The notes under the pieces were generated by a model. The model was not told the DNA's origin, did not search any database, and saw only the letters and a program-made list of their open reading frames with translations. A program made the translations under genes and the position numbers. Positions 16,734 through 60,193 of a stretch of DNA of 64,000 bases are shown here, piece by piece. The DNA lies in the NCBI GenBank assembly GCA_050273025.1, contig CP158635.1, positions 15,810,001 through 15,874,000 on the forward strand, read 5' to 3'. The stretch's first letter is position 1, and each line of letters begins with the position of its first letter. Source of the stretch: Cenococcum geophilum (taxonomy: Eukaryota).

Positions 16734-16841
16734 CTATCTCCCTCCTCTCTATTTTTGTCCTTAAAGATTCTAAATATCTTTAGGTTGTTTACTAGAGGTA
16801 TAATATCTATCTAATTAATTTGGTTAATATTATTGCTTATT

Positions 16842-29922: not shown

Positions 29923-29969
29923 CAATTACTACCTAGTTATGGTATTAAATATAGAAAGTTAAATAATAT

Positions 29970-32895
29970 ACCACTAAAAGCAGCTACTACGACGTTATTG
30001 ACGGCGGCAACTACTTTAAGGTTAGGTAATACTAGTATAGCAGATACTAACTTATAGCAACCTATAACGGTCGGACAGCTATAAGAGATAGTTAACTAGT
30101 TAATAGCTAATAATGTAGTAATAAAAGAAAGGGTTAATAGAATAGAAGCAGTAAGGATTAAATTACTATTAATTAAGAGATTCTTAGGAGAGAGATTAAA
30201 GCTTAAAGGATTCCTTATGTAAATGCACTTTAAGGTTATATAAAAAGGGGTAAAGCTACTAATACCTATAGATCGAATAGCCTATATAGGACTATTCCTA
30301 TTAGGAAGAGCACTTAAGTAGTTTAAGCCTTACTTTATAGAAATATAGGTAAACGTAATAACGACTACTAATTAAAAGGTGTGGTTTATATTCTTAAGCT
30401 AGGAGGGGTTTATAGAGCGACTTATATAAATATTTAGAGACCTAAAGGCAGTAACTACGGCGGAAAGAAAACTTTAAGATATTATGTAATAAACCTTAAC
30501 AATTAAGTATACAATGTAGTTCTAGACGCTAATAATATAAATAGAGTAGAATAATAGGGCGCTTATAGTATAGTATAAATAGGGACTTAAGGCTAAAGTC
30601 TAAGACGTAATTATTCTAATAGAAGATATAGATACCCTATAGGATTTAATAGATTAAGCAATTAAGATTAATAATTAGATCTACTAAAGGGAATAGGCTA
30701 AAAGGGGTTAGGATAGAGTTCTATAGTTATATAAGGCGTAAAGTACGTAATAATAAAAGCTAAGTTAGAAACTATGGTATAGCGCAGAGCTAATAGACCT
30801 AAGTAGTACTAAAGAAGCCTATAAGAAATGGAGTAAAAAACTATAAAAACCTAAAGGTTAAGGATCTAGTAATTATAGGATTAAGAAGTAAAGGCTAAAT
30901 TAGGGATCTTAGCAGCAGAAGACATTTAGGCGGACTTTATAGTAAAGTTAATAGTTTAAAGATAGAGCTTATATAAATTATAGGAAACGAGGTTATTTTA
31001 TAAGGGATTATAAAGATAGTTAGAGTTACTATGTAATAAAGGGAACTAGATTAGTAGTAAAAGATATATATATATAGAGGGATAATAGTATACTATAAGG
31101 AATAAGAGAATATTTAATTAGAAGTTTCTTATTTTATTATAATAACGTATACTAAATTTATAAAGACGCTAAGTATAGCGTAAGCTATTAGCTATAAGAG
31201 CCAAAATTTATAAAGTATAAAGGAACTAATAAACTAGTTTATAGATTGGATATTAAGGATAATAAATTTAACGTAGGCGAAATATTTAGTAACTATAAGG
31301 TAATAAGGGCGGCTTACTAGAAGTATATAAACCTTAAAGATGTTATAAAAGAGGTAGAGGATAATTCTACTATAGAATAGGGAACATTAGTAGGGATTAA
31401 GACCCCACTAGATATAATATCTATTGCTTTACGAAATGTAAGAGAAGTAGGATAGTAAACCACTTTAGCACTTAATAAAGGCAAAAGGCTAAAGGCTTAA
31501 AATTCTTAAGACGAGATAAGGTATACCTAAGGACCTATAATAGATAGTAACCGATAAAGTAGGGCAGTAGCTTAGTTTAAAGATATATAAATAAGCTTGG
31601 AATAGAGTTTCCTATAGGTATAAAACTCTTAAGATAAAATAAGTAAAATTTAAGACTTTTAAGATGAGATAAGAATACTAAATAAGCCTAGTTAGACTAA
31701 GGTAGGAGTAAAGCTTAAGTTAGAAGCGAGATTAGGATTAAGAATTCTATAAAACTAAGATTTTAAAATATAAATAAGGACTATTAATAAGATTAGAGAA
31801 TCTATAGTATAAATAGTAACTAGATTAGGAGACAGATATATAGACCTAGAAGACTTACTAGGGGAATATAGTATTTAGCCTAAAGATTAAAAAACTAATA
31901 CTAAGATTAAGAAGTAAGACGACTTTAAGGATCTACTTATAAGACGCGAAAAGAAAGAAACTATAGAGGAATTTAGAGTAAGAATTACCTTATAGTAAGA
32001 ATAGAAACTAGATAAGAGATCTAGTATGTTAGGACGTATAAGGGATAAAGCGCTAGTATAAAGAATTACTAATAGGCCTAGAATAGGCATACTAAGAGCT
32101 AAGTAGCTTACTAAACTAGAATAAGAAGAGGATCTAGAAATTCTAACTAGATTTAAAAAATGATATATAAAAGGCTATTATAATATAGTAATAAGAAGAT
32201 ACTTCCTTATGGACAAACTATATATACTCTAGCGGCTATACTAAAAGTGGTATAGGTAAAGGCATAATAATAAGTGGGAAGATTTCTATATATAGTTAGA
32301 TAAGAAAGTTATTTAGAACTACCCTATTACGGAAAAGGCGATAAGTTATATTAAAGGAGCCTTAATTATAACGTTAAAGGATTTAAAGGAACGTTTAGAG
32401 GACTAAAGAAGTAAGAGATATATTTTAGTACCTGCGAATAAAGTTATAACGTTTAGATTAATATAATAGAGGTTTAAACTTAAGAATAAAGACGAGCTAA
32501 GAGTTAACTTAAGATACTAAGTATATTATACGCTATTATAGATTATATATATAGATAATACGTATAGTATATATAAAGCACTTAAGGATAAGTATTATAA
32601 GTACCCTATGAGAATATATTAGTTAGTAAAGGAAAAGAAATACTAGAATACTAAGTATATATATAGCTAGCATTTAGTAGAAGTATAAGAATTAGGAAAC
32701 TTAATACTTTAGCTAAAATAATTCCTTATGGAAGAATACCTAGACGGATAATAGTAGTAGGAATGCCTAGAGAATATATATCTATAGTATATTAAAGATA
32801 AAAAGCGAACTAAGTATTAGCTAAAGTTGGACTAAGTATAAATAGAATTAAATAGCTAATAGTTAGGAAAAGTAGAGGCCTATAGAACTAAAGGA
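29970..32895 (+). pseudogene. Extended gag of B, with a long Cys/His-motif region after the zinc knuckle
   Basis: Gag core and CCHC to about 31010, then about 1.9 kb of further codon-like sequence up to a ttaggaaaagtag gag-end motif near 32865. The same region is present in A at about 25480-27400. Confidence 0.6.
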
Positions 32896-33135
32896 AACTA
32901 ATAGTAGAGCCTTAAACCCTTAAAGAAATTTAAAAACAATACCTAAATTTATAAATTAAGTAGCAAGATTAACAATTTAAGGCATTAATAGATAGTGGAG
33001 TAATAAGGAACCATATCTTACTAGCAGTAGTTAAAAAAATAGGTTTACCACACAGGAAAAAGGAGCACCTTTACCTATTAGTAATAATTTTAGGAGATCT
33101 AATAGCCTATAAAGGAGGGATTATTAACCTTAAAA

Positions 33136-36100
33136 GATTGTTTAACTAAAACGCACTTTAATAAAAGAGGAGCTCTTGCTGCACCTGGCCTAAAAAGACT
33201 AAAACCAACCAAAAGAACCCTGAAAAACACCTAGAGAATCCCCCTAAGATGTATACATCGCAGGGGAGGCATACGTTAAACGACGGTAGTTCGCACTTAC
33301 GCGCGTCTACTAGAACCACGCCTAGTAATAGCCCTCTATAATAAGAACGGGCGAATACTACACTATAAAGCGGAAAGACCTCTATTAAGAAGGCATCTAA
33401 CAAAATATAAAGCCTATTAGACACGTCTAGTATCCGCAGTTATAGGGGAGTAACTGTTAGCTATAACAAACTAATATAGCTAGCAGAATGGCTCCGCTAG
33501 TTTAGCGAACCCTAGGCGCCCCTCTAGTAAACCCTTAACTAAATCCTCTAATGGTTAAGTAAAATTAAAAATAAATAAAACCCCTCCTTACTGGCAAACC
33601 GCACCTAGGCCGCTATAGCTGCGTATCCATAGTATAGGGAACCTACCCCCCTAAAGACAATATCTGGGTATATAATTATAATATAACTAAATATAGAAAA
33701 AGTAGAGGGGCTTAGGGGATAATTAGAAATAGAAGTCCTTATAGAGATTTATAAAGAGGTCCATAACGTTATTATAGTCCAACACCTTAGGAGCGGAGAT
33801 ATTAGAGTTACCCTAAGGAACTAACAGGTAAAGAAATAAGCCGTTAGGGTAGGGGACAGGCTAGGAGAATATATTAGCATAAAAGTGCTCTATAAAGATT
33901 ACCCAGTTAAAGTCCTAGCGGTTTCCCTAAGCCTTAGGGTAGAAAAGGGACGCCAGGCGGATAATATAGTAACTATATATAAGATAGTAAAATAAACGGA
34001 ACGCCTTATACTAGGACTTAAAATCACCTAAATTTAATGGCTTTAATAGGAAAATGTAAACTAAGTATATAATAAAATAATAAAAGAATATAAGGGTCGC
34101 CAGAGACTCGCTAGGGAAACGCCGGTCGAACGTATAGCTCCCTTATTATTAGCACACATATACCAAAAATGCAAAAACTCCTTATTTAAAAAGGTATTAT
34201 TATAAATAGCCTTATATACAATACAAGGCTCTATAACCACAGACTCCGCCTAGAATAATACTATCGCTATGTATAATAGGGACATACCTAATCCATATGC
34301 GCAGTATAGGTATACTACGGCCACTATATAGGCCCCTATAATATAAGACAATACTTAAATTAAAATTAAATAAAATGCGCAAACTGCCACTAAAGCACAT
34401 ATAAGGCGTAAGAGAGAGTAGACTACATTAAATATAAGAGACGGAAGGTAAGGGCTTAACAGCTACGGGAATAACTGCATACTAGGTTATATAAATAGAA
34501 ATAATAGGCGATAAGCTAGGGGGGCGCGGGTGCCTTTTTAGCGTTTCCTACCTTTAATACTAGGGGGCTAGGCTAGCTATTCCAAGCCTTAATAGGCCAG
34601 AAGCAACGCCGCGCGATATTACTAGACTGTATAGGGATATAAGGGTCATAGGGGACATAAGGAAGAAAACGCCCTATAGGAAGACCCTTATAGACAGCTA
34701 TAGTAAGCTTAAGACTAGGATAATTAAGAATTAGACTTAACGCGGTAAATATAAAATTCGTAGCTAACTCTTAAAGGGCATATAGCTAACTAGTAAGAAT
34801 AGGGGAAGAACCGGAGACAATAACAGATTTAGATATAGAAGCGCTAGTAGGAATACAAGACATAGGAATAGAAAGCTCTATATAAAATAAGTAGCAGCTA
34901 GGGTGTAGATATAAGAGATAGAAGTTCTAAATATTCTAGAGAAAGTAGAAATAGAAGAAGTAAGGAATAAAGGAGAGGCGAAGGACCCTCACTGGGGGTC
35001 CGCCACCTATCTATTATATAGTATAACTGCGGCAATACAAACCACCGTCTCGCAAGGCCCTTACTAGATAGCCTAGACCTAGAGAAATATTATATCCTTA
35101 CTATATAAGAGCCGTATTATAATACCTACATATAATTAACATACTGCCCCTAAGGATTTTAGCTCCTATATAAACCAAAAGTAGCTATACGCGTGTGCTT
35201 TATAATTAGTAAGGCTATTAGCCTATCCTTATAGTTATAGCAGGCAGTTAACCTAGATATTACAGTTATAATAATCTAGATATATAGGGGACCAGTATAG
35301 ATTATTAATGTGTATAACCCTAGGGTTAAAGAGGTCCCATAAATAGAGAATATTATATTAGCGATAAGCTTACTAAAAACTAAAGGTATAGAGTTTATCC
35401 TATTAGGAGATATAAACCTCCACCACCTATGGTAGGGGGGTATTTATATTACTGCTAAACGATAGGCAGAGTGCCTACTAAGAGCTATAGACACCTAGGG
35501 CCTTAAGCTAGCCACCCCCCTAGAAGCAATTATATAGCAATAAGGCACCACTAGAAGTATAATTAACCTTATATTTATAGACGAAGGCCTATACTAGAGA
35601 CTTAAAAGGTATAACCCTAAAGAAGAATAGGTACTTACTTTAGACTATATCCCTATTTAGATATAGCTAGATCTAGATATTAAGGCGTAACCTAATAGTA
35701 AAAGATATATAATAAGAAAGCTTAAGACAGACAGCTTCCTTAGCATAGTTAAATAATAACTTTAAGACTTAGAAGAAATCCACCCAATACTAAATAAGCG
35801 AGGCTTATTAGCTACCCCTAAGGAAATCGACTAAAGACTAAAAAGGATTTAGGCAGCAATTAAAAATAGGCTAGAAGAGCACTACCCGGTCTTAAAACCG
35901 GGCCCCTATATACAATATATATAGTCCGCATAATACGCGGTTCTTATTGCCAGCCAACAATAAGTAAGAAGAAAATATATAAGCAGCCATAATCCTAAAG
36001 ACGAGAGACAATATAAAGATATAAGAAACCAGCTAAAGAATACCCTAAAAAAAGAAGTAAGGAATAGCTGGAGACGGTTTATAAATAAGCATATTACTAA

Positions 36101-38698
36101 CCTAAGCCTCCCCTATAATAAAGGTCTCTAGAGGATAGTAAAATAGGTAAAGAAAAAGGCGGGACGCCTAGTAGAAGACCTATACCTTCCACCCCTACAA
36201 AAACTAGGTGAATTACTGGCTATAAGCGACAATAATAAGAAGGTAAAGATTCTTATAGAAAGATTTTTCCCTTAACCAGCTTTAGTAGACCTCAGTAATA
36301 TTATAGGCGAAGCACCGGTGACTCGCCTAAGGGTCGATAACAATATAACAGCTAAAGAAATGACCAGAACTATTAGCCGCCTTTTAAATAATATAGCACT
36401 AGGACCAGATGGGATCCTAAATAAAGCCCTAAAGACCTACGGACCACTAATAGCACCTTAGCTTGCGGATATAGCTGGAGCATACTTTATAATAGGCTAC
36501 TACCCAAGACTTAGAAGAGCTATAATAACGTTTATCCTACGTAAAGAAGGTAAAGCAGACTACTTATTTCTAGGGAGCTACCGCCCTATTGCCTTAGAGA
36601 ATACCCTTAACAAGATCTTAGAAAGGGTAATAGCGGATTATATAGCAGACACGGTTAAGGAATACGCCCTACTACTATAAAGCTAAATAGGGGCAAGAAA
36701 GAACCGCTTAACACTATCAGCACTTACGCTACTCGCTACCACCATTAAATCTGCATGGGCGATGCGAAAGGACTTTATAGTATTAATGCTTAGCCTAGAT
36801 ATTAGTGGCGCCTATAATAACGTACCCCATAAGCGTCTCTTATATATCCTTAGGGCAAAAGGCTTCCTAAAATGGATTATATAATTTATTTAAGGGTTTA
36901 TAGGTTAAAAAGAAACATTATTAGTCTTTAGCAGATACTAAAGCCCCCCTATTATAGTTGCAACAGGAATACTATAAGGATTACCCCTCTCGCCTATACT
37001 CTTCCTTTTCTTTATAAGCAACCTACTTAATTTCTTTAAAGAAGGGGCGACCTAGGGGATAGGCTTTATTAATAATATAAACCTAATTATATACGGGCCA
37101 ATAGCCGCAGAGAATTATAGAACACTAGAGAAAGCTTATAATACCTATATAGAATGGGCAAGATAATATAGAGTCCAATTCTTACTAGAGAAATACTAGC
37201 TAATCTATTTTATAAGAAAACGCAACCAATCTGCAGATCTCTAGCATATAATTTGTATTTAAGGCTTTAGGGGTTAGCCAGTTTAGAGCCTAAGAGTATT
37301 AGGAGTATAGGTAGATAGTAAGCTTTAGTGGAGCGTATATACGGCGCAAGCGGCCCATAAGGGCTAAGTATAGTATATTATATTATCTAGGATTGTTAAC
37401 TCTATATAGGGTCCATGCTTTTAAAGGTCACGCCTACTATATATAGCAGTTATCCGGCTAACCATAATGTATAGGTCCAGTATTTAGGCCATTAGAGAAT
37501 CTAAGAAAGGCCCCCCTAAATCGCTCCTTAAACTACTCTAAAAGGTCTAAATAGCTTACCTCTGGAGTATAATAGGCGGATATAAGTAAACGGCCACAGC
37601 ACTACTTAAGAAGGAAGCTAATATTCCCCCCCTACAACTATATATTAAAGCTACTGCAATATAAAGGGCATAAAAGGAACGCAACTCTAATATTATAAAG
37701 TATATCAAGACACGCCTAAATAAACTATAGAGGGACCTTAGGGCGCCTTATAGGAGAACAAACCAATAACCCCAAAATAGGGAAGATATATTAGAAAAAT
37801 AGGTAAAGAAAGTAGAAGAAGAATGGCACTACTTTAGGGCCCAGGCCCATATAGAGGAGGAAGGGAGACGCGTAAAAGGCCAGCAAAGACAATAGTAAGA
37901 GAAAAAAAGGAGCTAAAGTAGAGCACAAAAGAACGCTAGGAAACTATCTACCGCAATATAATACTGGCTAGACTAACGCTAAAGAGGTATATAGGAGTTA
38001 AAGGTACAGAGGCTGACTAAGGTAAGAGGAACCTAAGCCGTAGTATAGTTAACGCTATGGGGGGTAAACACTCTAGAGCTCTAAGAAGGCCTAATAAAGG
38101 TAGAAAATATAATAGCAACACTCTTAAGAACAGGAATAATAGGACTAAAAGACTGGCTCTACTAGGTAGGTGTCCTAGTAGGTAGCCCGAGATATAAATA
38201 TAGCTAGCTAAAATAGACACTAAAATATATAATACTGTTATGCCCCTTACGCACTAACTAAGAAGTAATACTCTTAGTAGCTAGCATAGAGAACTATAAG
38301 ACACTACTTTTAATACAAAAAGGCCTTAAGGCGGTTACCTAGTAGCTTATTAGCTAAAATATACTAAACCAGTTCTGGGTTATAAAGGAAATGGCAATAG
38401 AGGGCGAAGGGGCGAGTAATAGGCGCCCCCTAATAACTCTATAGTAGTAGAGTAAAGTTTATAATACTAGCGCGTCCGTAGGCTTATTACGGCAGCAGTA
38501 GTTCCTAAGGAGGTTAAAAAGTAAGGTAGTAAGAGCACTACTAGTAACTCGCAGGCGCCTTATAGGCGAGTCCTAAAAGGCAGGGAGATAGATTACAGGG
38601 TTTTCTTAAATAGAGTTTTCTCCCTATATATATATAAGGAGTAGTCCGTATAGGCCTAATAGGGATCTAAATCGGACGTTAAATAATGAATTATTATT
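33136..38698 (+). mobile_element. Tad1-like LINE, apparently full length (5.56 kb), inserted just after the protease active site of B
   Basis: 16-bp TSD attattaaccttaaaa at 33120-33135 and 38699-38714; (att)n tail; candidate ORF1 ATG at 33249 with CCHC knuckles near 34255-34425; ORF2 about 35005-38450 collinear with the other copy. Confidence 0.93.
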
Positions 38699-38960
38699 AT
38701 TATTAACCTTAAAACAGGACTTATTTAGTTAACTATTAAAGGGAAATAAATTAAAATGTCTTTTAATATATTACTATTAGGAAATAATAAGGCAGTATTA
38801 GGAATGCCTTAGTTATAGAAATATAACCTAAAGATTAATTAGGTTATAGGTTAAGTTAATATTAGGGATACTTAATGCTATAAAATATAATAATAAGCTA
38901 AGTTAGTATAGTACTAAGTTGGAGCGATATATAAAGAGACTAAGTAAGGCTTAAGTTATA

Positions 38961-40800
38961 ACGTTTTATATAAGCGAGTGAGCTATATAAGCGAGCGAGC
39001 CACCCCACCAAGACTTAACCACCTTAAAAGCTAATAGCTACCCACCATCTATCGCTATAATAAATTACTAGCAGCTAGATAGACTAACTGTTAGCCTGTT
39101 TACACGTTCTTAAATTATGTCTAGTCTCCCTACAGCGCCTACAGCGCCTCTGCTGCGAAGCGTTCCCACTTTTACGCCGCTTGCCCTTACGCGTCTCCCC
39201 CTCTACCTGCTTATTAGCCTAAGCTACTAGATCTAGACCCTCTGCCACTGTAAGAACCTCTTATTTTTATAAGCGCTTTTTTTTTACGCTTTTTACGCTG
39301 CGATAGAGCCTTATTAGCTTTTTGTAGGCTAGCTATCTGTGCGCGCATTAGGGTGGCTTTATGCATTATCTTCTCAGCACCCTTAAACAGCTAGTCTAGC
39401 TAGTCTACTATTGAGCTAGGTGAACTACTCTGGTAATTTTAAATTCGGCTATGTAGTAGAGCTGTTTAACTGCCTAGTTCAGTGATATTGCTAGGTGTTT
39501 TGGGTTCCTATAGAGCAACCTCTATAGGAGGTATAGGCGTTTAAAGCTTAACATCTAGCTTTAAGAGTATAGCCTCTAGATTAAATGGGACTAGGCCTGT
39601 ACCTCAAAATCCTACACGGATATTGCTCTCAGTAATAGAGTTGCTATAGGCTGCTTTAAATGCTGGTAGAAATTCAAGCTTTGTAACGTGGAAGATATGG
39701 TTACGAACTAGGTTATCAACCTACTATCTATACGCGCGCTTTAGAGGCGCAAAGCAGCCTACATCTAGTGGCTGTAGTAGATGTGACGCGTATGCTAGCA
39801 TACAGAGCGTAAGAATATTCTTCTGCTTGCAGAGCTGTTAAAATTTGAGAGATTAATAGCTCTCATGACCGTCGATTACTAGTAGGCGATGTGTGCCTAC
39901 TGTATGATACTGCGTATGCCTATTAAAGTGCTCTAGCCATTTAATACCCAGCTAATTAGTCGTCTAACCATTCTCGCTTAGCGCGATAGCCTATTCTTGT
40001 GGTATATTATGGAACTAGGTAGTATAGTGGTGCTTTCTAGTAAATATAATAAACGGTGGAATTGGCCAGCCTAGAGCATTTACACCCTAGATTACTGTAA
40101 CCTATTCTCAATTACCTAGCTGTACAGTTTTAGGCTGGATACGTCGCTCAGAGCCTATAATAACTTTAGCAGTTGCTATAACACCCATTTGAAATCCAGC
40201 TTTATTAAAATTATACGTGTCTCCGTTAGATATGCTATGCTCTGCCTTAAAATTGCCCACGAGGTTAAACTAGGGCTCAATAATCCTAGGATCCTCGCAT
40301 AGAGCTCGCTAATAGTCGTACTTCCAATTATATCATAATTTAATCTTAGGCGTCCTCCGTATGTAGTTACATAGCCAGTTAATGCCGACCTTACTAGCAG
40401 AGCTAGTAGAGCGCGCAGCGAGTAGTTAATTAGCCATTTCTCTTATATAGATAACCCGAGGCGCAAATCCTTGTAAATCTAGGTTAAGAATATGCTCAGT
40501 AATAGCCTCCTCTTCTAGCTTAGTAAGCTTCTTTGAATTGGCCTCGTAATTGCGTCGTGAGAGAGTTCCACCGTGTCGTCGTTAAAGGGTCGCTTGAGAG
40601 ACATCGTAAGTTACTGTAGCGCGCCGTACGCTATGGAATTGGTTCTGCTTAATAGCTGAGATAGCTAGGGCTATTCTGCCTTCTTGATAGCTCGATTGAG
40701 GGTTGTGTTGTTGTTTTATGGTAGTTAATAGTTAACGCGTCGTGATTTCTTGGTGGGGTGGCTCACTCGCTTATGTGGCTCACTCGCTTGTGTAAAACGT
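38961..40800 (-). mobile_element. Fot1/pogo-family DNA transposon (1840 bp)
   Basis: About 53-bp TIRs (acgttttacacaagcgagtgagccac...ccccaccaaga) with an internal 17-bp direct repeat; TA duplicated at 38959-38960 and 40801-40802. The uninterrupted site is seen in copy A near 24975. Confidence 0.95.
39070..40719 (-). pseudogene. Fot1/pogo DDE transposase with RIP stops
   Basis: N-terminal HTH (QEGRIALAISAIKQNQFHSVRRATVTYDVSQATL*RR), YNFNKAGFQMG (NFDE motif), LLVIDGHES, and C-terminal RRCRRCRETRHNLRTC knuckle. Confidence 0.9.
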
Positions 40801-41204
40801 TATACTAAAAAGATACTATAAGTATAATAAGAAACTATAGTTACTAAAAAGTAAAAAGCTATTAGAGTATATAGTATAGGACTATAAGATAGAATTAGAA
40901 CTAAAAATAAGTCTAAGGTTCTTTCTAATCTATAAGTATTAATATCACCTAGGGGGTACTGTAATTGCAATATAAGGTAACAGGTTCTTTAATTTATTTA
41001 TATTCTTTTATAAAGAATTATAAGAATTGCGGTGCCTAAATAGGGGGCTAATAAGTTACTATAAGGATGACTAATTAGAGATAGAACTACGTAACCTCTA
41101 CTTATACAGACACTAGCGACATTTATAAAAAGGAAAGAAGGTAAGAAAGTATAAAGGAGAAGTATATAGGTTAACAGGTGCTTAGGGCAGTAATCGCGAA
41201 TGTC

Positions 41205-41345
41205 TTGGGTATTGCGAATATTACGGATATTGCAGACGTTGCGGATATCGTTACGGATATTGCGGATATCGCTATGGATATTGCGGATATCGCTACGGAT
41301 ATTGCGGATATTGCGGATATCGTAAACATTTGGATATTGCGGTGG
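41205..41345. repeat. 9-bp tandem array (gatattgcg-type) in the Copia-like 3' region
   Basis: Repeating gcggatatt/gcggatatc units with 12-bp variants. Confidence 0.9.
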
Positions 41346-41493
41346 AGACAGGTAGGCGCATATAAGGTGTTACTGAGGTATCCCGTGACAGAGCGTAGTT
41401 GAAGTCAGAACTGAAGGTATGGCGGCTTTAGAAGGTATAAAAGTTATAGGGCTGTCGCAGACCATAGGGGAAAAAAGGTGGAAGGGCTAAGTC

Positions 41494-43233
41494 CTATCCG
41501 TTATCGTTAAAATAACAGTTAAGGAAGTTAATATTAACCGTAAGGTTCTCTATATTAACCTTACTACCGCGCCTTACTATACTAGGTTCCGTATTACTAG
41601 GTTCCGTACTACTAGGTTCCGTGCTACTAGTAAGGCCGTAGGCAAAGGCATTGTTGTTTATAGATATAACTATATTCTTAGCGGTTTCAATTAATATTAG
41701 CCCATTTAAAGTTATAAAGTGCTTAACACTATAGTCGTTGTAGAAGAAATTACTGCTAGTAGTAGTCGGAGTTGATATATTAAGTGCTATAGCCGTTATA
41801 TCCTTGTCAAAATCGTCGTTAATATCGTTGTCTATAAGGTACTGGTGGACACGTCTCTTAAATCCTTCTCTTGCTTCGTCACGTTCTTCTTTAGTATGCT
41901 TAGTTAACCAATAGTCTCCTTTCTTACACACGAAGCACGTCCTGGCGTTATTGCTGTAACGATTATTTGATGAACTTAGTTAAGATATTGGTCGGTAGTA
42001 GCGACGGTTAGTAAAGAACACGTTGGTAGGTTATCCTATAGTACCGTTAATCTTCTTATAAGTGACGATTAATGATTATAGGCTGTTTATGAGGCTAGTA
42101 AGTGTAGTAGGTAGGTTTAAGCAAGCTGCCTGGTAAGTAGCGACGTCTTGACAAGCGACAATGAGCTTATTATATAGGAAATCGTTATTACGGAGGTTAG
42201 CATTAAGACCATGCTGTAAATGACAGAGGTTGTTAAGTAGTAGCTGTAGGTAGTCCCCTATAGACTTACCTTCGTTTTTTATTATTACCGTCTTAAGAGT
42301 AATAGTATTCCACTTTATTAGAATTCCACGCTTATATTCCGGTCCTTTAAAATAGTTGCGTACGGCATTATAGATACTATTAAAGGTGGTATAAGTTGCC
42401 TTATTCTTATAGTAGAAGTTAAAAGTAATACTACGTAATATTATCGGAAAGCCTTTAATCTTTACCTCTTGTGGTATACCGACTCTATTATAAAGGTCAT
42501 TAAAAATCGTAAGCTTGCGGTCAAAGTTATCATCCTCTCCGCTGTATTTGCTTTCCTCTATATATATCTTTACCAGAATTACTAAGTCTCTACCATAGTT
42601 AATAGTGGCTGTGACTTTTATAGAAGGTGCTGCAACGTTCGTAGGGGAAGCCGTAACGTTCGTAGAGAGAGCCGTGGCGTTTATAGGGGGAGCCGTAACG
42701 TTCGTTAGGGGAGCCGTAACGTTCATTAGGGGAGCCGTGATGTTCATAGGTAAGGGGGGCTCGGCCGTAGAGAGGTCATTTAAGATAGCTGGGGTTAGGG
42801 TAGGTGACGTTAAGGGGGTTAATAAACGTAATTTAAGACGGCGGTTAATAACATACGAATTAAAGGGTCCTTCACTATTAATGTATAGCTTAATTTCTTC
42901 ATCTAACCATTCCGTAGGGTTATCCTCGTGGGCAACGTCATATAGTGCTTATAGTACTAACTTGCTCTTCTTATTAAAGACCCATACTCCATTACGTTAG
43001 AGTAGTTGTTTAAGTTCCTTAATTACGGACCTATAAGCATCCTTAAATGTCTATACCTCGAAATTATTAAAGTCCTCTTGGTATAATTCCTATAAGCTTT
43101 TATCCTTAAAGTTGCGCTTAGTATACTTATTAATTTTAAAGTTAATATAGTTAGTGATGTCTTTTGCGGTAGTCTTATTAGTTAGGGTAATCCCGTTACC
43201 CCAGTCCGGACGTTAAATTCCTGTGTCGGATAT
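41494..43233 (-). pseudogene. Copia-type gag in one frame (about 580 codons, a few RIP stops)
   Basis: ORF-track pieces 42747-42076 and 41931-41494 are in frame with an upstream ATA(ATG) at 43233. Motifs KYSGEDDNFDRKLTIF and CFVCKKGDYWLTKH knuckle. Confidence 0.8.
42630..42750. repeat. 21-bp coding minisatellite in gag (NVTAPLT-type units)
   Basis: ggagccgtaacgttcgttagg-type unit, about 6 copies. A 15-bp tactaggttccgtac repeat also occurs at about 41578-41630. Confidence 0.9.
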
Positions 43234-43688
43234 AATTAACTGGCGTAGATCGTGGTGTAGGTAGGGGTGCTGCTAACGCTGCTGGGTTGTAGGATACTGC
43301 CGAAGCTGCTGGGGGTACTGGCACTTAGTAAAGAGGTCGTACTGGGTATTAATTTGCGTGATGGACGCGAACCGGACGAAGCCTTGGTAGGAGCCAGTTC
43401 TTTGAGTTCCCAGGGCCTTAGTAGGAAGGGTTCTCCTTAGCAAACGCGACGTGATCAACGGGCCTTAGTAGGAGCGATCGCGTGTTGTCTCTCTTCGTAA
43501 TAACACCTGGCTAATCTGTGATATCAACTGATCAGTGTCGGTATCACCCGGGGGGTACTATAATTGCAATATAAGGTAATAGGTTCTTTGATTTATTCGT
43601 GTTCTTCCGCAGAGGATCGTAAGGATCGCGGTGCCTAAATAGGGGGCTAATAAGTCACCGTAAGGATGACTAATCAGAGACATAACTA

Positions 43689-44114
43689 ACGTAGTCGGTA
43701 AGCAAGTGGGCCATGCAAGCATCCGGGCCACCGCAAAACCCCACCAAAAAACCCAAAAATCGGTCTTTAATATCTTAACAACGGCTTAATAATAAATTAT
43801 AAAATTTTATAATTAGACTCTTATACTTACTTTAAGACCTCTATTAGAGTTTTGGAGTAATTACTTAAGCCATTATTAATATATTAAGATTTAGCTCTTA
43901 AATCTAAGCCAAATTATTATATCTTAAGAACCACTTATTAAATTACGTTAAAACTTTAATATAGGCCTTAAGGTATATATAAGAGTCTAATTATAAAATT
44001 ATAAAATTTATTATTAAGCCGTTATTAAGATATTAAGGACCGGTTTTTGGGTTTTTTAGTGGGGTTTTGCGGTGGCCCGGATGCTTGTATAGCCCACTTG
44101 CTTACCGACTACGT
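43689..44114. mobile_element. pogo-type hairpin MITE (426 bp) inside the Copia-like 5' LTR
   Basis: Ends acgtagtcggtaagcaagtgggc...gcccacttgcttaccgactacgt; TA duplicated at 43687-43688 and 44115-44116. The empty site aactacgtaacc is present in the partner LTR near 41086. Inverted arms extend about 170 bp. Confidence 0.95.
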
Positions 44115-46879
44115 TACGTAACCTCTACTTGTACAGACAATAAGCTTACTAAAGAAGAGGGTAGAGCATTAAAAGAGTTTGTTTAAGAAAATCTATAAAA
44201 GGGATATATTAGACTATTGCAGTTATTAGCGGGTTATCTAGTACTATTTATACTAAAGAAAAATAGTAAACTAAGGCTGTATATTAACTATAGACAGTTA
44301 AATAGCATTACTAGGAAGGATAGGTATCCTTTACCCTTAATTAGCGAAATCTAAAACAGAATAGGTAATATATAAATCTTTATAAAGATAGATCTAAGAT
44401 AGGCGTACTATTAGATTAGAATTAAGGAAGGCGATAAATAGAAGGTAGCCTTTAGGTTAAAGGAAGGACTATATAAACTATTAGTTATATAATTCGGGCT
44501 TATAAACGCACTAGCAATGTTCTAGAAGCGTATTAATAATATATTAAAAGAATACTTAGATAAATTTATTATAGTATACCTTAATAATATTATTATCTAC
44601 TTAATAACTAAGGAAGAATATAGGGAACACGTTAAATAGGTCTTAAAGAGACTATAAGAAGAATAGATACTAGTAGTAATTAAGAAATACGAGTTCTTTA
44701 CTAGGAAGATAAATTTTATTAAATTTATTATTAAACTAGGCTAACTTAGTATAGATTTAAAGAAGATTAAGGCTATAGTAAATTAATAAGAACTAGAAAA
44801 CATTACGCAGTTAAAATTATTTTTAGGGTTTTATAATTACTGTAGAAGGTTTATAATGTAATAGTTAAAGGATATTAAACTATTTACGCGATTAATAAAG
44901 AAAGAAGAACTATAGGTATAGGAAGAGGAATAGTAAGAACTCTTTAAAAAAGTTAAAGAATTGTTTACCTAGGAGCTAGTTTTTAAAATCTATTAACTAG
45001 GACTAAAGACGGTTATAAAAATAGATATATTAGACTATATACTAGGGGCGTACTTTATATAGAAATATTAAGATAGATGGCACCTAGTAGTATACTATAG
45101 TTAAAAGATAACACCACTAAAGTTAAACTATAACATCTATAATAATAAGTTATTAGGTATAGTTATAGTACTAAAGAAATAGAGAGTATTTTTATAAGGT
45201 ATAGAGAAACTATTTATAGTTAAGACGGATTATAGGAACCTAATAGGATTCCTAATAATAAAGGAACTTAACTAAAAATAGGTTAGATGGGCAGAGATGC
45301 TTATAGAATACTATTTTAAGATTTAGTATACTAAGGGCATAAATAACACGTAAGCAGACGCTCTAAGTTAAAAAGCTAAACTATAAAGCGATAAAAAGCT
45401 ATTAGGGGCTTTACTGTAAAAGGATATAGACGGATTAATTAGGTATAATTATCTAAAAATTATAGTAACTTAGAAAGAGCTAGATAAGGTCTATAAGACA
45501 CTAAAAAACTTTTAGGTATAAAGAATTCTAGAGGTATAGCTAGAAGATCTATAGATGGATATATACGGAAGTTAAGAAGTAATGTATATTCTAAGAAGCA
45601 TAGCAGAGTACTTTATAGAGGATTTCTATAAGGGAGTAACTTAAGGACATAATAGAGCTATAGGCTTAGTGTTAAGACTCTAGAAGGAGTATATTATTAA
45701 CGGAATTTAAGGCTTAGTATAAAAAGTTATAAAGGAATATTTAGATTGCTAAAGGAATAAACTAATAAGGTATAAGCTATATAGAGGGCTATAACCTATT
45801 AAGATACTAGAGAGACTATAGGAGGTTATATTATAAAACTTTATTATTAAGTTATTAAAGTTAAGAGATCCTATTACCGGATAAGATTATAACGCGATTT
45901 TAGTAATAGTAGATAAGCTTATAAAGTAGGAATACTTTATAGTATATATAGAAGAAATATTAGTGGAGGATATCGCTAGAATCTATATTAAGGAAGTATT
46001 CGTAAGATATAGAGTACTAAGTAAAATTATATCGGATAGAGATTTAAGATTTATAGCAGTATTTTAGAAGGTATTTTTAGCGGAGCAAGGAGTTAGAGTA
46101 GCAACTTTTACTGTATATTATCCGCAGACAGACGGTTAAACAGAAAGATTAAATTAGATATTAGAGTAGTATTTAAAACACTATATTAATCATATATAGA
46201 ATAATTAGGTATTATTACTACTAGTTATATAGTTTATATATAATATAATACCTTAAGAAGGAATAGGTATATTACTATTTAAGGTAAATTACGGGTATAA
46301 GCTAAGGATATTATTATTATTATAATAAGTAAAGAAAATAAGTAGTATAGCTAAAGAAAGAATAAAGATGTTAATAAATCTTTATATGGACCTTATAGAA
46401 TTAGTAAAGAAAGTATAAGAGAGAATAAAAAAGTACTATAATGCTAAGAGATCTAAGGGACTAGATCTTAAGGAGGGAGATAAAGTATAGCTACTATATA
46501 AAAATTTTAAGAGTTAACAACTAAGTAAGAAGTTAAACTATATTAGACTAAGACCTTTTAAAATTATATAAAGGATTTCACCGGTTATATTTAAGTTAAA
46601 CCTATTAGCTAAAATAAAGATTTACCCTATATAGTATATCGCGATGCTAGAGCTAGTATATAGAAATATTAAGCCACCGGTTTATAAGATAAATATATAT
46701 AAAGGATAAGAGGAAAACAAATAGTAAGTTTTTAAGATTATTAGTTATAAGGACATTAATAATAAAATATAGTATAAGGTTAAGTAAATAAGCTATACTA
46801 AGACTACCTAGGAGCTACTAGAGAACTTAAAGAATGCTATAGGAAAGGTATAGGAGTATTAGAAGAAATTAGGTTAGGT

Positions 46880-47509
46880 AATATTAATAAAGAAGGATTG
46901 CTAAAGAACGAGTTACCTAAGGGGGACCTAAGAAGAGTAGTTACTAAAGTACTCGGATCTATTTCCTTCTCTATTAAAGGAGAATCTGTTCTTTTATTAC
47001 TAAGTTCCTATAAACCTTATTCTATAAGTTTCTACTCCTTAAAATAAACCTTCTTACGCACCTTTTTAAGACGGATTAACTAAGCGGACGCCATAAGATA
47101 AGACTTAAGGGCCCGTTGCTAAGCATTAGCAGCCTTTTATTTAGCATTCTAAGAACGGCGTAGTTCCGCCAGAGTAATAGATAGCTTATTATCTAGCTAT
47201 ATAGCAGTAGATTAAATACAAAACCCTAAAATAAATTAATTAGGGAATTAGACGACTATTAAGAGTAATAGGTCGCGTATATTTAGTATTAGAGATAGAG
47301 CAAACGTCGCAGGACAAATAAATATTTGCTTTAGTGCACTTTAAATAAGAGAATAGTTATTGCGAAGATAGGTTTACTAACGTAATATAAACTAACCTTT
47401 TTTCCAAATAGCGAGAATACGGAGATAGTATAATCTCACTAAGAGATAGTATTATAGTAATAGTGCGAGCGCAACAAACGGTCGAAGAAGAAGAAATTGC
47501 TTTAGGTAT
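46880..47509 (-). pseudogene. Antisense spliced Zn2Cys6-like / coiled-coil gene in the 3' region of B
   Basis: Exon 1 47509-47281 is 76 codons plus 1 nt. The 55-bp intron 47280-47226 joins T|GG (Trp) in phase. Exon 2 reads ...LDNKLSITLAELRRS*NAK*KAANA*QRALKS...LIRLKKVRKK...; its end is approximate. Confidence 0.72.
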
Positions 47510-47617
47510 AATGAGTAATAATATTAACTAAATTAATTAGACGGATATTATACCTCTAGTAAATAACTTAAAGATATTAGGAATCTTTAAGGACAAAAAT
47601 AAAAAGGAGGGAGATAG

Positions 47618-48041
47618 TATTACGGACGCTTTAAGTATAATATTATAACTATTTAGGGAAGAGTCGGAAGAAGCTAGTTGGTTAATTTAGGTATAGTTTA
47701 GGATGGAACTAGTAGAGCTATATAATAAGGGATAGTAGCTAAGATTATATAACGCGATCTATATAATTTATAAAATCTGTATAATCTATAATAGAGTAGA
47801 TAGAGTATATATATATTATATATAAGAAGGATTTTATAGGAATACGGTTGTGTATTTAAGGACCCTTAGTCCCTACCTAGATAGTTCCTTCCTTATAGTA
47901 ATTCTTAAAATATAATTAGAGTTAATCTATTAGGCAACTACTCCACTAGTTATTATTATGTTGTTAACTTTAATTTGTATTACCTATACACCTAGCCCAA
48001 TAACGAGCCTATTGTAGTTCTTGCTATAAGGTTCTGTTATA
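47618..48041 (+). repeat. 3' LTR of B
   Basis: Follows the polypurine tract; followed by TSD ataga. Confidence 0.93.
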
Positions 48042-50725
48042 ATAGATAAACTAGTAATAAAAGTTAGTAAAACCTAAAAAGACCTAGACATCCCTATAGA
48101 ATTAAGGGCTCTCCTACTTAGCAATAGCTTCTACCCAGCTAGGATCTATTATTACGCCTTTAGGACTAATAATATATCCTAGGAACTTAACCTCTTATAC
48201 GCCAAACCTATACTTCTTAAGGTTTGTATATAGTTAATATTACTATAACCTACGTAGCACTTCTAGTACGTAGCGCTAGTGTTCCTCTAGATTTTCCAAG
48301 AAAATTAGAATATTATTAAGGTAGACTATATAGAAGACATCTATTAGTCCTAATAAGGCTTAATTAATATAGCCCTAAAAGGTCGCTAGTCTGTTAGTTA
48401 ACCTAAAAGGCAAAACTAAATACTTAAAGTGGCTGTAACGCGTATAGAATGTTATCTTTTACTTATCGCCCTAACGGATACAAAGGCAGTAGTACACATT
48501 TATTAGGTCTAATTTAGTAAAGATTTTAAAACCTGCTAAGCGGTCCAAGGTCTTACTAATTAATAGTAGTGTAAGACAATTCTTAATTGTCACCTTATTA
48601 AGGCCTTTATAGTTTATATAGGGCCGCAGCTTTCTATTTTTTTTTATATAAATAGGATAGGTGCCCCTACGGGGCTAGTACTTAGTTAGATTTAGCCTTT
48701 CGCTAAGGCGTTATTTAAGTATTCCCTTAGTACCTTTAGCTCCTTAACTAAGAGGTTATAGAGTAGTCTATATAGGACCTCCTGTCCCTTTTTTAGGTTA
48801 ATAGTATAGTCGCCCTAGTAGTGTCGGGGTAGCTTTTTTGCTTCCTTATATAAGAAGACATTACTAGCTTTTTTTAACTATAGGGGAAGAACTAGTAAGC
48901 TGCCGTTGTTTTATTTACTAAGTATTAATCCAGTAATTACTAAGGCAAAGACCCTAGATTCCCTCTAGAGAGACTTTATAAAACCCTTAGGGGTTTATAG
49001 CAATAGGGATAAGCCGTTTAGCTTCTATTACTACGCCTTTACCTTACAGTTAATAAGAAGTTAGGCCTTTTTTAACCCTAGTATACCTAGGGTAATAGTA
49101 GGGGATATATTAGCTATTCTATAGCAAATAAGGGTTACTTTCCTTATCCTACCCTAGCTATTCTTTATTTCTAATAGTACCTTATAGGCTTTATAGCAAT
49201 ATACCTAAGTTTTATTTAACTAGGAGTAGGTAGATAATTCTGCATCTAGTGTTTTAAAGTTATACTCTATTATAAATCGCTAATTAATTATATTTACTTT
49301 AGCGCCAAAATTAAGTATTACTAAGGTTTCCTTCTAAGTCTGCTTAAATAGGACTTCTTCTAAGATAGTAATAGCTTCCTTATAATCTAGTAGTAGCTTA
49401 TACCCTATAGGTATAAGGGGCTCTAAAGGCGCCTACCTTTTCCTAGCGTAGAGATAGCGTTTATGCTACTTAGCGGCGGCTAGTACTATTATAGCTCTAG
49501 GCACTATCGCCACTAATATCCTAGCTTACTACAATTTTTATAGTTCCCCTTAGGTTGGGTTAAACCCCTAGCAGTACTACTTTGCCCCGCCATTATATTA
49601 CTAGCGGTGGTTTTAGAGTCCGCTTTCCCTAAGTTACCTAATAGGGTGGTCTTTATATTTAAGTTTACGGCACGCCTATTACCTCTAGCTTATAGGGCGC
49701 TTACGCTCTTCTAGTTTTTCTTTAATAGGGCAGCTAGGGAAATAAGCTAATTTTAAGTTTATGGAAATTCCTAATAGTTAGTAACTATAAGCCGTAGCTC
49801 TAGCTATAGCTTTGCGAATAGGTGTATTATTAAATACTTTATATTATAGGGAGGATTAATTTGCGCTTCTAAGGAGGTTAGGTAAATAGTAAACTTATTT
49901 ATAGGTTAATTGGTTTGCTATATTGCCCTTATATAGGTTAGGGCTGTATATAGTTCTTAATTAATAGGACTTTTAATCTAATTAAGTAAGAATTCTATAA
50001 GCTTCCCCTAGGTAAACTACGTATCTAAATAGTTATCTTTATACTATAGCCAAAGGGTTTAGTTGGTCCCCTTTATATATTATATAATAAACACAACTTT
50101 AGTATCCTTATCCGCGAAAGCGTTAAGCTCTAGGCGGAATGCTAGCTTTAAGCTATTACGGAAGTCTTAGTGCTTTTATATACTCTTACCGTAATACGGA
50201 GTAATCTTCTTTATTTTAACGGCCCGTTTTAATAAAGCGCCTATTATATTAGTAGCCTTCCGCTTAAGGTTTAGATACTTTAAGCTACCCTTTAAGTACT
50301 CTAATAGGATGCTCTAAGGTAGTAGATTTAGGTTAGGAATAGGAGTTAATATTACCTTACCGCGTTAACGCCGTTTTAGCATTTCTACCTCTTCCCTAAG
50401 CAACTATAGTTTTCCTTACTTTAGGAGTTATAGCTTCTTATTCTCTAGCCGTTGTATTTCTTCCTATATAGTATTCTCGCCTGTAGCTTTTAGTTCTATT
50501 TAGGATATAGGTCTACCCATATCGTCCTAGGGCTAATCCCCAGACTCGGTACTACGCACTGCGCTAATATTACGCCCGCGTCTCGCTATTAGGTTAATAG
50601 ACTATAATATAATTAATAAATATAGGTCGTCTTTTTAATAGAGGGCTGTTGCTATATAGTCGTAGCTTTAGCAGACCACTGTATTGCCGGACCGCTACCC
50701 CTAAAAAGGGATAAGAATTTAGAAC

Positions 50726-53764: not shown

Positions 53765-54078
53765 ATATATATAAGTTAAATATACGTAATATTTTAACCT
53801 AAAGAGAAAGGGTTTAAGCCTATTTTAGGGAGGAGTATAGGCGTAGTAATTAGGGGGTATATAACTAGTAGTGGCCTATATATATTATTATTAATTCCAT
53901 TTATTACCGGATTTAGTCCCTTTTTTAGGTCTATAGAGGCTTCTACCTTCTATTTATAGGAAAAATCCCTAGTAAGGAAAAAGCTATAACGATCGCTTAC
54001 TAAGCTAAATAAACGCAATTAGCTAAAAAGGTATAGTGTTAAACTAAACAGTTTAACGGGCTCGGTAACCAATATATA

Positions 54079-54334
54079 TATTAGCGACTTAGTTAATTAA
54101 GGCATGATCACGGTAAGAGAGACACATAAGCCTATATAATTAGATTGTTTATAAACAAGAATCTAAAGCTAAGGAAATAAAAGGAGAAGAAGAGTAGCGC
54201 CGCTTAATATTTTATAAGATCTTTACGTTACGTTACGTAACCGCAATATATAGCAATCTGTGGTAACTTACCGGTATAAAGTTCTATTAAGTTCTACTAA
54301 CTAAGTTCTACCATTTTCTGCTAGTGCTATAACA
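54079..54334 (-). repeat. 3' LTR of E
   Basis: tattagcgac...gctataaca; direct repeat of 59944-60193. Confidence 0.92.
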
Positions 54335-57300: not shown

Positions 57301-59943
57301 ATTTAGCTTTTTTATAAAGAGAATAGGGGAGGTAAAAGGGGCCTAGCTAGGCTTAATAAACCCCTTTACTAGGTTATTAACAAGGTACTATTTAGTAGCC
57401 TATAACTTAGCAATAGATTATTTATAGAGGGGGGTATAGCTAAGGGCGTTTTCCTTGTCTAACTTAATCTCGATCTTATAGTCGTATAGTTAGTGCGGTA
57501 GAAGTATATTAGATACCACCTTAGAGAATATATCCTTAAACTTTTGGTATTAATAGGGTCGTTTCTATTCTACTAGCTCCTCGTCTATAAGCTCGCTTTC
57601 CTATCTACTAAGCTTATTTTTCTTTTCCTTAAGTATTTAGTTAATTTTGTATAAGCTAGTTATAAAAGCAATAGTATTAAGCTAAACCAAGTTCTGGTAG
57701 AATCCTACGGCGCTAATACCATAGATATTAACTAGTGGGAGGTCCGTAGGTTTTCTTACAGCCATTTACTAAACCGTATTTTACAGTTTAGGGTTTATAA
57801 TCTTTCTTAGCTCCTATTCTATTTTCTATAAGTTATCCCTTTAGTTTATTAGTTTAGTATAGCGTCTAATATTCCTTACTATTCTTTATAGCTATATAGG
57901 GCCTAAGCTCTCTATAGGGGGCTTTTTTAAGTTATTATTAACTTCCTAGGTCTTTAATGCGGGTAGCGTAATATAGGTAGTTTAGGGGCGGCGGAATATA
58001 TAAATCCGTTACAGATTAAGCTATATATCTTTCTTAAAGGCCTAGTCCCTACGCATAGCATTAGCCTAGTAAATAGTATTAATTTAGGGCCGTATAAGAT
58101 TTTTTATTATAATACTAATTTCTTTTATAAAGGAAGGAGTTAGGGGTAGATTTTTAGGCTAGATAAGCTGTTTACTCTATATATCTAGCTATAAGCCTAA
58201 ATAGGCTAGCCATTTTCTCCTTAAAATTATATTATAGCTTCCTAGGTCCGTAATAAGGAAGGGGATATTATATTACTTTTGTCCGTTAATATAAAGGTAA
58301 ATCCGTAATATAGTTGTAATAGGTAGTCCTACCCGTCCGTTATACCCATAAATAGGAATTAGCTTAGGCAGTTCTTCTAAAGGCGTATTTAAAAAGTTAG
58401 CTAGTTTTACAGCGCACTTTATATTAATTAGGGTAAAGGCATTTACTCCTAAATTAGCTAAAGAAAAGTTTAAAACTTAATATCTATTACGGAATAAAGT
58501 ATAAGGGATAGTGTAGCTTTTCTTACTAACTAGCTAACCTAGATTAATATATAATATATTAATTCCTTTTAACCCTAAGGAGGAGTCTTCCCCTAAGGTT
58601 CCTCTTTTTCTAACTCTATACTATCCTCCTAAATTAATAGGACCTTATTTATCTTTACCTTTATTAGGCAGTTCCTTATAGGGTAGTTAGGTTAACCGTA
58701 TAAGAAGTAAGCTCCTTAATTACTAAGGGCCTATATATAGGGGTTACTATATATAAGCCGGGTATATACCAGACCTATAGTAGGGGTAGCTACGTGGCTA
58801 GCTACTAGGTTAACTATAGGCTAAGTAGCTAGTGCTATAAGGGTTGCCGATTGTGCTAGGGCACTATAGGCCGTTCTTGTAGTACTTATAGCCTAATTTA
58901 TAAGGGTTTTAGTTTTTAGCCAATTAGCGCGTGCCTTAATTTAATAGAGGCCTTAGTTAATAGCTAGGCAATAGTTTATAAGTTCCTTTAATGTCTATAT
59001 TATAGTATAAGCTAGTAATATAGCCTGCTATAAGTTTAGGGTAAGCTTATTAAAAAGGGTTAGTAATAGGTCTTTTTAGGGGATCTAGGCCTATTTAGCT
59101 AGGTATAAAAAGCGGGTCTAAAAGGCTAAAAAGGTCTCCATTATTTTTATATTTGGGCTTTTATAGCTAAGGCGGGCGTTTTATACTTTAAAAGGGTCTT
59201 TATAAATAGAAGATAAGTATTTAATTATTTCTTCTTTAGAGATAAAGGGGTTTATTAAGTCTTTAGTATATTACAGGCGTAAATACATCTAGGCGTTTCC
59301 GCTAGTACGGCTAAAGACGTAGGCCATCTTAGCTTAGGGGGTAGAAAAGTAGTTAGCATTAACTTTAAGCTTATCCCGTAATTAAAGCTTCTAGTTATTA
59401 AATATTAGGTTTATTCTATCCGTAAATAGCGGGGGATCCGCAACCTTTATTAACTACTTTAGTACTATATAGGCCTTAGTAAATCTACTAAGGCGCTAAA
59501 ATAGGGCCTAAAGGACTATAGTAAGTCTTTAGTTGTCTAATAATGACTTATTATTAGATATAGGGGTATCTCTAGCTTTAAGCAGCTCTTACAGTTATTT
59601 AATTTTAGTATTAGCTGCCGCAAGCTCCGCCTATAGGGTTAAAACGTTAATTATTTCTTTGTCTGAAGTATTTAAGGGTCCTATAGCTGCTTTACCTACT
59701 ACTATATTTCGTAGTATAGTAGTAGGGGTATTAGGTAATTCTAGGTAATTTCTTTAGAAGTTCTAGTCTATGTATATCTTATAGGTCCTTTCCTTAGGGT
59801 TCTATTTTTTTCCTTTTAGGTCCTATCCTTATAGTCTTAATAATATCCTTAGGGTCTTATTCTATGTTCTTGTCCTATTTATAGTCTTATAGATATATTT
59901 AAGTTCCTTCTTAGGAAGAGAAAGTAGAAAGAGCTTTAGATAA

Positions 59944-60193
59944 TATTAACGACTTAGTTAATTAAGGTATAAGCACAGTAAGAGAGACGCGCAAGCCTAT
60001 ATAATTGGATTATCTATAAACAAGAATCTAAAACTAGGGAAAGAAAAGGAGAAGAAAAGTAGCGCCGCTTAATATTTATAAGATCTTCGTGTTACATAAC
60101 CGCAATATGCGGCAATCTGTGGCAACTTGCTAGTGTAAAGTTCTGCCAAGTTCTGCCAACTAAGTTCTGCCATTTTCTGCCAGTGCCGTAATA
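59944..60193 (-). repeat. 5' LTR of E
   Basis: tattaacgac...gccgtaata; contains aagttctgcc tandem repeats. Confidence 0.92.

Follow-up and report, generated by a model that had tools for sequence, protein, structure and literature searches.

The spacer that separates pol from the 3′ LTR in a Ty3/Gypsy family of Cenococcum geophilum very probably holds the remnant of a genuine third gene, which is antisense to gag-pol and was killed by RIP. The window that we analysed comprises 64,000 nucleotides (contig CP158635.1, positions 15,810,001 to 15,874,000 of the forward strand; all coordinates given here are those of the window) and carries two copies of the element, A and B. In both of these copies the antisense gene is dead. 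From the letters of the window, the original prediction had proposed an element-encoded antisense accessory gene of two exons. This proposal is borne out by the codon periodicity of the variation, its distribution over four-fold codon boxes, a shift of coding phase at the intron and in-frame indels.

The GC content is 20-40% throughout the window, which consists of AT-rich repeat debris. Comparison of the window with itself gave two inverted copies of a single LTR element (Table 1), and 16314-19279 of copy A is 86% identical to 48045-45078 of copy B, showing that the copies are homologous. Both are interrupted by nested insertions. Among these is a 4.6-kb repeat (19272-23890 in A and 34095-38705 in B, 89.7% identical). 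Its two copies occupy different internal sites, are oriented oppositely with respect to their host, and therefore represent independent insertions of another family. The two copies are placed head to head with their 5′ LTRs only ~580 bp apart (28906-29486), and the self-comparison detected no similarity between their outer flanks. Further repeat families were seen at 3633-6005 and at 54078-54327 and 59943-60186.

On the sense frame of copy B, Pfam matched RT_RNaseH (E 2.5e-13) and SH3_Tf2-1, the latter also being matched in the pol tails of 5/5 natural copies. In a Ty3/Gypsy chromovirus, RT/RNase H would be followed by integrase and a C-terminal chromodomain. The chromodomain-like character of the pol tail was judged by eye only, in the de-RIP consensus; in the pol tails of the five natural copies, in which the Trp codons have become RIP stops, Pfam Chromo was not matched at E ≤ 0.1. 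A stop codon at 46929-46931, present in 60 of the 67 copies that we aligned (see below), is the likely end of pol. From there, a spacer of ~680 bp leads to the 3′ LTR, and this is where the antisense gene is located. It is arranged tail-to-tail with pol and ends within the last ~30 pol codons, ~95 nt at the end of exon 2 overlapping the end of pol on the opposite strand. In the DNA run X1, ~45,000 contigs align to 46400-48045, and the element family is hugely repeated in the organism of that run. Some contigs of runs X1, X19 and X20 skip 65-445 nt within the spacer, which suggests that they are deletion variants.

Table 1. Positions in the window of the two element copies and of the parts of the antisense gene.
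Feature	Position	Strand	Remarks
Copy A of the element	16314-28906	-	LTRs 16317-16737 and 28469-28895; from self-comparison
Copy B of the element	29486-48045	+	LTRs 29494-29922 and 47614-48041; from self-comparison
3′ LTR, copy A	16317-16737	-	Repeat pairing of 16317-16734 with 28469-28895
3′ LTR, copy B	47614-48041	+	~430-bp repeat paired with 29494-29922
3′ part of pol, copy B	45078-46931	+	RNase H, integrase with Tf2-type SH3, chromodomain-like tail
Antisense gene, copy B	47509-46837	-	
Leader, copy B	47510-47613	-	LTR edge to start codon; contains polypurine-tract complement adjoining the LTR (by eye)
Exon 1, copy B	47281-47509	-	Start ATA here, ATG ancestrally
Cys codons of exon 1, copy B	47419, 47410, 47389, 47347, 47338, 47311	-	
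Intron (proposed, 55 nt), copy B	47226-47280	-	Begins AT (ancestral GT[A/G]CGC), ends TAG
Exon 2, copy B	46837-47225	-	Coiled-coil part and conserved tail; stop TAG 46839-46837
Antisense gene, copy A	16842-17513	+	
Exon 1, copy A	16842-17069	+	Start ATA; Cys1 and Cys2 intact; frame broken by private 1-bp deletion
Intron (proposed, 55 nt), copy A	17070-17124	+	AT...AG
Exon 2, copy A	17125-17513	+	Stop included

The ORF had originally been described as starting within the 3′ LTR. An antisense ORF reading toward pol is indeed present in both copies, and its start lies 105 bp internal to the inner edge of the LTR. The proposed start positions were retained (47509 in B, 16842 in A); the ends were moved from 46880 to 46837 in B and from 17500 to 17513 in A. 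Between the spacers of A and B we counted 121 transitions, 7 transversions and 1 internal 1-bp indel. As had been reported, copy A has TGT for Cys1 and Cys2, and both copies have TGY for Cys5 and Cys6 and TAT for Cys3 and Cys4. The 1-bp deletion in copy A is private to it (1/67 copies) and is the reason why the cysteine pattern initially had to be pieced together from two copies.

To widen the set of copies, metagenome contigs were scanned with the pol tail, which gave 79 loci. We kept 65 segments from 63 loci, in which the BLAST match covered the pol tail and the entire spacer, and dropped 16 loci that were cut short. Together with A and B, these form an alignment of 67 copies. All of them are degraded by RIP (TpA/ApT 1.6-1.9), and all of them contain the antisense gene. 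A RIP-aware consensus was built by taking C or G wherever it was kept in at least 10% (or at least 5%) of the copies. In the pol tail, which served as positive control, this procedure lowered the number of stops from 14 to 4 and then to 1 in 166 codons. In the antisense gene the consensus restored an ATG at 47509-47507 (present in 14/67 copies), followed by 89 stop-free codons up to a conserved TAA at 47242-47240. It also restored the six Cys codons, with the G kept in 24, 29, 13, 16, 50 and 30 copies for Cys1 to Cys6, respectively. The donor, which is AT in both window copies and had been read as RIP-altered, is GT in 6/67 copies (47280, motif GT[A/G]CGC), and the AG acceptor at 47227-47226 is present in 64/67. 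Under the 5% rule the second frame is stop-free down to 46839-46837, where 67/67 copies have TAG or TAA. Thus start codon, donor and six cysteines were all recovered by the consensus that had been proposed as a check, and none of the findings named beforehand as speaking against the gene occurred.

A stop-free consensus is in itself a poor guide, since in AT-rich debris nearly any TA can be read as TG or CA, and the ORF could be an artefact of reversing RIP with no gene behind it. After de-RIPing with 67 copies, four of the six frames across the exon ranges are nearly free of stops. We also rejected stop counts, raw or after a two-copy de-RIP, as evidence for coding: 45 stops per 600 codons are left in the true pol frame after the two-copy procedure, one antisense frame of pol has fewer stops than pol itself, and such counts do not separate pol from non-coding frames. 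Moreover, the ORF could originally be chosen from 64 kb in six frames. RIP yields transitions only, and for this reason we used transversions and indels as test material, on which the reversal of RIP has no influence. The results of these tests, together with 196 relatives in a protein database and an intact full-length homologue (P0151), make it extremely unlikely that the ORF arose in this way.

A column of the 67-copy alignment was scored as transversion-polymorphic when the minor class was found in at least three copies. From the ATG to the unspliced TAA (47509-47243), 11, 6 and 27 such columns fell on codon positions 1, 2 and 3 (89 columns per position, p 2.7e-4). For exon 1 proper (47509-47282) the numbers were 11, 4 and 24 (76 columns per position, p 3.6e-4), and for exon 2 outside the pol overlap 23, 18 and 47 (88-89 columns per position, p 2.5e-4). 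No significant periodicity was found in the LTR (23, 20 and 16; 142-143 columns per position, p 0.55), and the pol tail, with 5, 7 and 7 (181 columns per position, p 0.81), was too conserved to tell. The wobble phase moves by one base between ~47270 and ~47210, which is where the intron lies. Length variants follow the same pattern. They are multiples of three in 11/12 cases in exon 1 and in 43/49 in exon 2, that is in 54/61 for both exons, compared to 14/61 for leader and LTR (0/5 and 14/56, respectively). For exon 2, six length classes are shared by two or more copies, and each of them is a multiple of three. The intron has a constant length of 55 nt (67/67 copies). These data support that the antisense two-exon gene evolved under protein-coding constraint.

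Periodicity of this kind could also originate from the sense strand, either from a C-terminal extension of pol or from an additional env-like sense ORF, of which the antisense frame would be a mirror image. Over exon 1, the pol frame is in fact the sense frame with the same wobble column, and it is open after de-RIPing at 5%. However, wobble transversions are enriched in the four-fold codon boxes of the antisense frames, with odds ratios of 4.3 (p = 0.009) and, in exon 2, 3.8 (p = 0.005), and no such enrichment exists in the sense frames sharing the wobble column (odds ratios 0.6 and 1.6, not significant). This difference allowed us to assign the coding signal to the antisense strand. In addition, codon position 2 has the fewest transversion columns when read antisense, a sense product would have to change frame twice and lacks a start, and P0151 is the antisense product. 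A sense-strand origin of the constraint is therefore highly improbable.

We next consider the relatives of the antisense product. Searched with the read-through frame of copy A, proteins of 123-392 aa yielded no match at E ≤ 1, and a search with a gappy alignment (A3) found none among proteins of 409-2000 aa, a length range that makes this search uninformative. Profile A1, built for exon 1 from 18 natural copies with stops read as X, was then compared to a library of 1.84 billion proteins. It matched 196 proteins (clusters at 50% identity) at E ≤ 1e-3, of which 105 at E ≤ 1e-10. The matches that we inspected are RIP-worn ORFs of other element families. Each of the six cysteine columns holds Cys or its RIP product Tyr in 96-99% of ~145-147 relatives, in agreement with the spacing C-x2-C-x6-C-x13-C-x2-C-x8-C put forward from the two window copies and shared by the consensus, the relatives and P0151. 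The protein P0106 (910 aa, with ten near-identical repeats that matched in ten stretches at E 2e-10) looks unrelated, was probably found through its Cys pattern or composition and was excluded from the alignments.

P0151, one of the longer matches, is an undegraded protein of 239 aa, encoded on a contig of 1423 nt, with all six cysteines at identical spacing. The exon-1 profile matches its residues 32-105 (E 3e-28), and the exon-2 profile matches residues 103-239 (E 4e-23) as an unbroken continuation. In the window's family the exon junction splits a Trp codon (T|GG), and the 55-nt interval shifts the reading by one base into the second frame; P0151 has a Trp at precisely this position. The in-phase joining that was predicted at the outset is thus matched exactly, and at the level of protein sequence P0151 confirms the predicted two-exon product with its junction. 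Since P0151 has no Met at the start position of the window's family, the true N-terminus is uncertain. Among the other relatives, P0145, in which the coil part follows directly on the first half of the Cys module, looks like an internal deletion variant, and P0059 keeps a single frame across exon 1, the intron and exon 2.

An in-frame stop four codons past the acceptor, which was absent from the initial description of the gene, has to be explained if the exons are joined. It reads TAA in 62 copies, TAG in 3 and CAA in 2; the copies that retain CAA (L059 and L070) differ by subfamily-level indels. P0151 has Val where the window's family has TAA or CAA. As a control we used the chromodomain Trp codon of pol at 46809, which is kept as TGG in only 1/67 copies. 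Given this degree of loss at a pol codon, it is plausible that the post-acceptor TAA was made by RIP and is not a true stop.

Alternatively, only an unspliced product of 89 codons would be made, ending at the TAA at 47242-47240, and the second frame would not be joined to it, the TAA at 47214 being a true stop. The first of these stops is strongly conserved (T in 67, A in 64 and A in 64 of the 67 copies), 65/67 copies have TAA or TAG at the second, and many of the database ORFs that match exon 1 are ~85-105 aa long. These short ORFs are gene calls on RIP-degraded DNA made without splicing. Exon 2 has coding signals of its own and no start codon of its own, and P0151 contains both parts in one chain, so that we consider an exclusively unspliced product unlikely, while spliced and unspliced isoforms could coexist. 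Other splice sites for the two-exon gene, with donors at 47256 or 47248 and acceptors at 47197 or 47193, were discarded, as the donor motifs are poor and the coding periodicity is already present from ~47202.

None of the runs listed as containing this stretch is recorded as RNA, and transcription was looked at in the one raw-read RNA run, X21. A total of 56 reads aligned, all less than 95% alike and therefore derived from relatives, and they cover only the most conserved parts of the stretch. At 46730-46949 every first mate maps to the plus strand, with a depth of up to 10.5 versus 0 on the other strand; the strandedness of the library is not on record. Over the LTR, read pairs are mostly of the opposite polarity to those at 46730-46949. 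The reads are compatible with RNA of the polarity of the antisense gene, a weak indication. No read of X21 crosses or covers the intron. Contig joints within the spacer were rejected as evidence for splicing, because the skipped lengths (158, 89 and 107 nt) differ from that of the intron; they look like deletion variants.

The leader between the LTR and the start codon is more conserved than the antisense gene. It has a length of 104 nt in 62/67 copies, and only 4 of its 104 columns are transversion-polymorphic, three of them at the wobble phase of exon 1. An in-frame stop at 47539-47537 is present in 66/67 copies. About 20 database ORFs of other families read in frame through the leader. The leader could function as an antisense promoter or 5′ UTR, be constrained by the polypurine tract, or correspond to a longer N-terminus in other lineages. 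Its conservation could also be taken to mean that the spacer acts as RNA or DNA, for instance as an antisense regulatory transcript or through cis signals for reverse transcription, and that coding is incidental. In line with this, a review names dsRNA as a route by which antisense transcripts of retroelements can act. However, it is translation, and not RNA structure, that leaves three-base periodicity, variation of a synonymous type and indels that keep the frame. As a replacement for coding, an RNA or DNA role has hardly any chance of being right; in addition to coding, an RNA role may exist.

We return to the protein-coding antisense gene and its predicted product. This has ~210 aa and consists of a short N-terminal arm, the six-cysteine module, a short linker, a helix of ~100 residues and a conserved acidic and hydrophobic tail. 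AlphaFold2, run on P0151 with 103 rows, modelled residues 98-200 as a single helix with a pLDDT of 93-98, while the Cys region was poorly defined (pLDDT about 50-70). The confidently modelled helix after the Cys region agrees with the coiled-coil-like second exon suggested earlier.

Gal4-type proteins have six cysteines at the N-terminus, a linker and a long helix. The antisense product would share this build, with six cysteines near the N-terminus at similar spacing and a linker followed by a long helix. In contrast, its third loop has 13 residues, and between Cys2 and Cys3 the basic residues stand at shifted positions compared with Gal4-type proteins. The PROSITE pattern of Zn_clus is C-x2-C-x6-C-x(5-12)-C-x2-C-x(6-8)-C, which makes the third loop one residue too long. 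Pfam gave no match in the spacer on the six frames of copy B. For membership in Zn_clus (PF00172) we asked for at least 21 bits over the whole 39-position profile; the best matches reached 14.6 and 12.4 bits (E 0.037 and 0.17) and were limited to profile positions 17-33. These partial matches came from 2 of the 15 exon-1 reads, in a scan that also took 12 exon-2 reads. None of 147 relatives matched Zn_clus at E ≤ 0.01, and P0151 did not at E ≤ 1. The GAL4-type family membership suggested at first was therefore not upheld; by analogy, the build resembles that of a miniature Gal4-type factor.

The second candidate family was DUF3716 (PF12511, curated cut-off 22 bits). Copy L067 gave a marginal match below this cut-off (16.8 bits, E = 0.0066, profile positions 4-59 of 59), the only one among 147 sequences, and P0151 gave none at E ≤ 1. 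When PDB sequences were compared with the exon-1 profile, no chain was found at E ≤ 10. Since no significant match to Pfam or PDB was obtained, zinc binding, dimerisation, DNA binding and a regulatory role are properties that we infer. According to the literature, DUF3716 is likewise a fungal Cys-rich domain of ~60 residues borne by a mobile element, and two members, REP9-1 and REP9-2, are passenger genes of a Zymoseptoria DNA transposon. For one member, orthology to a protein that binds telomeric sequence is cited. Unlike the retroelement of the window, REP9 belongs to class II.

The antisense arrangement itself is already published for Boty, the closest known case. A review describes additional antisense ORFs in the interval from pol to the 3′ LTR as frequent among plant elements and as present in Boty of Botrytis and Sclerotinia as well (with reference to Zhao et al. 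2011, Virology 417:248), where the gene is called brtn. A Monilinia transcript similar to both a truncated Pol and BRTN is reported, and brtn is said to be absent from the current Botrytis annotation. As described, Boty is a fungal Gypsy element with a CHROMO-type pol and an extra antisense gene between pol and the 3′ LTR, like the element studied here; the likeness is one of position and orientation by description and does not by itself imply homology. Among the database matches that we looked up, none carries a name. Judged by what defines aORF-3R and brtn genes, the gene in the window runs antisense to gag-pol in the interval from pol to the 3′ LTR, is present in all 67 aligned copies and in 196 database clusters, and evolves as protein-coding sequence.

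The plant aORF-3R genes (gene23 of maize Grande, rice RIRE2, Silene Retand with TRP28) have the same position and orientation. They are conserved across copies; for some, the product is nuclear or a predicted DNA binder, and some possess a promoter of their own; the Retand paper describes DNA-binding-like TRP28 domains in antisense ORFs. They differ in belonging to plants and to non-chromovirus lineages, and their spacers are much longer (2.9-6.6 kb in Retand). Their domains (TRP28, SMC) are unlike those of the fungal gene, and no sequence relation was seen. HBZ of HTLV-1, which is spliced and has a coiled coil (bZIP), likewise lies close to the 3′ LTR on the strand opposite to gag-pol. It differs in that it belongs to a vertebrate retrovirus, and it has no sequence relation to the fungal gene. 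The abstract of a review states that antisense genes of retroviruses are under the control of promoters lying inside the 3′ LTR. In the literature that we searched, whose supplements may bear on this point, no six-Cys or zinc-cluster protein is described antisense in a fungal retrotransposon.

Taken as a working model, the antisense transcript would start near or in the 3′ LTR, and removal of the 55-nt GT-AG intron would join the two exons. With zinc held by the six cysteines and the helix paired in a coiled coil, the product would be a small Gal4-like dimeric nucleic-acid-binding protein that would regulate the element, or tether it. A more specific version of this model is possible rather than probable: the product may establish its own Cys6 domain family, separate from both Zn_clus and DUF3716, and act as a zinc-dependent dimeric sequence-specific DNA binder that switches its own LTR, guides integration or counters silencing.

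Accessory genes of retrotransposons are rare and their functions mostly unknown, and the one fungal case in print is brtn. The antisense gene described here appears conserved, spliced and widespread (196 clusters at 50% identity), and the build of its predicted product suggests nucleic-acid binding. It offers a concrete way into the question of how self-regulation or targeting might work in fungal Gypsy elements, and the use of transversions and indels allows real genes to be recovered from RIP-saturated DNA. If the product does form its own Cys6 family, it would be a fungal counterpart of the retroviral antisense regulators, present across many chromovirus lineages and missed by annotation.
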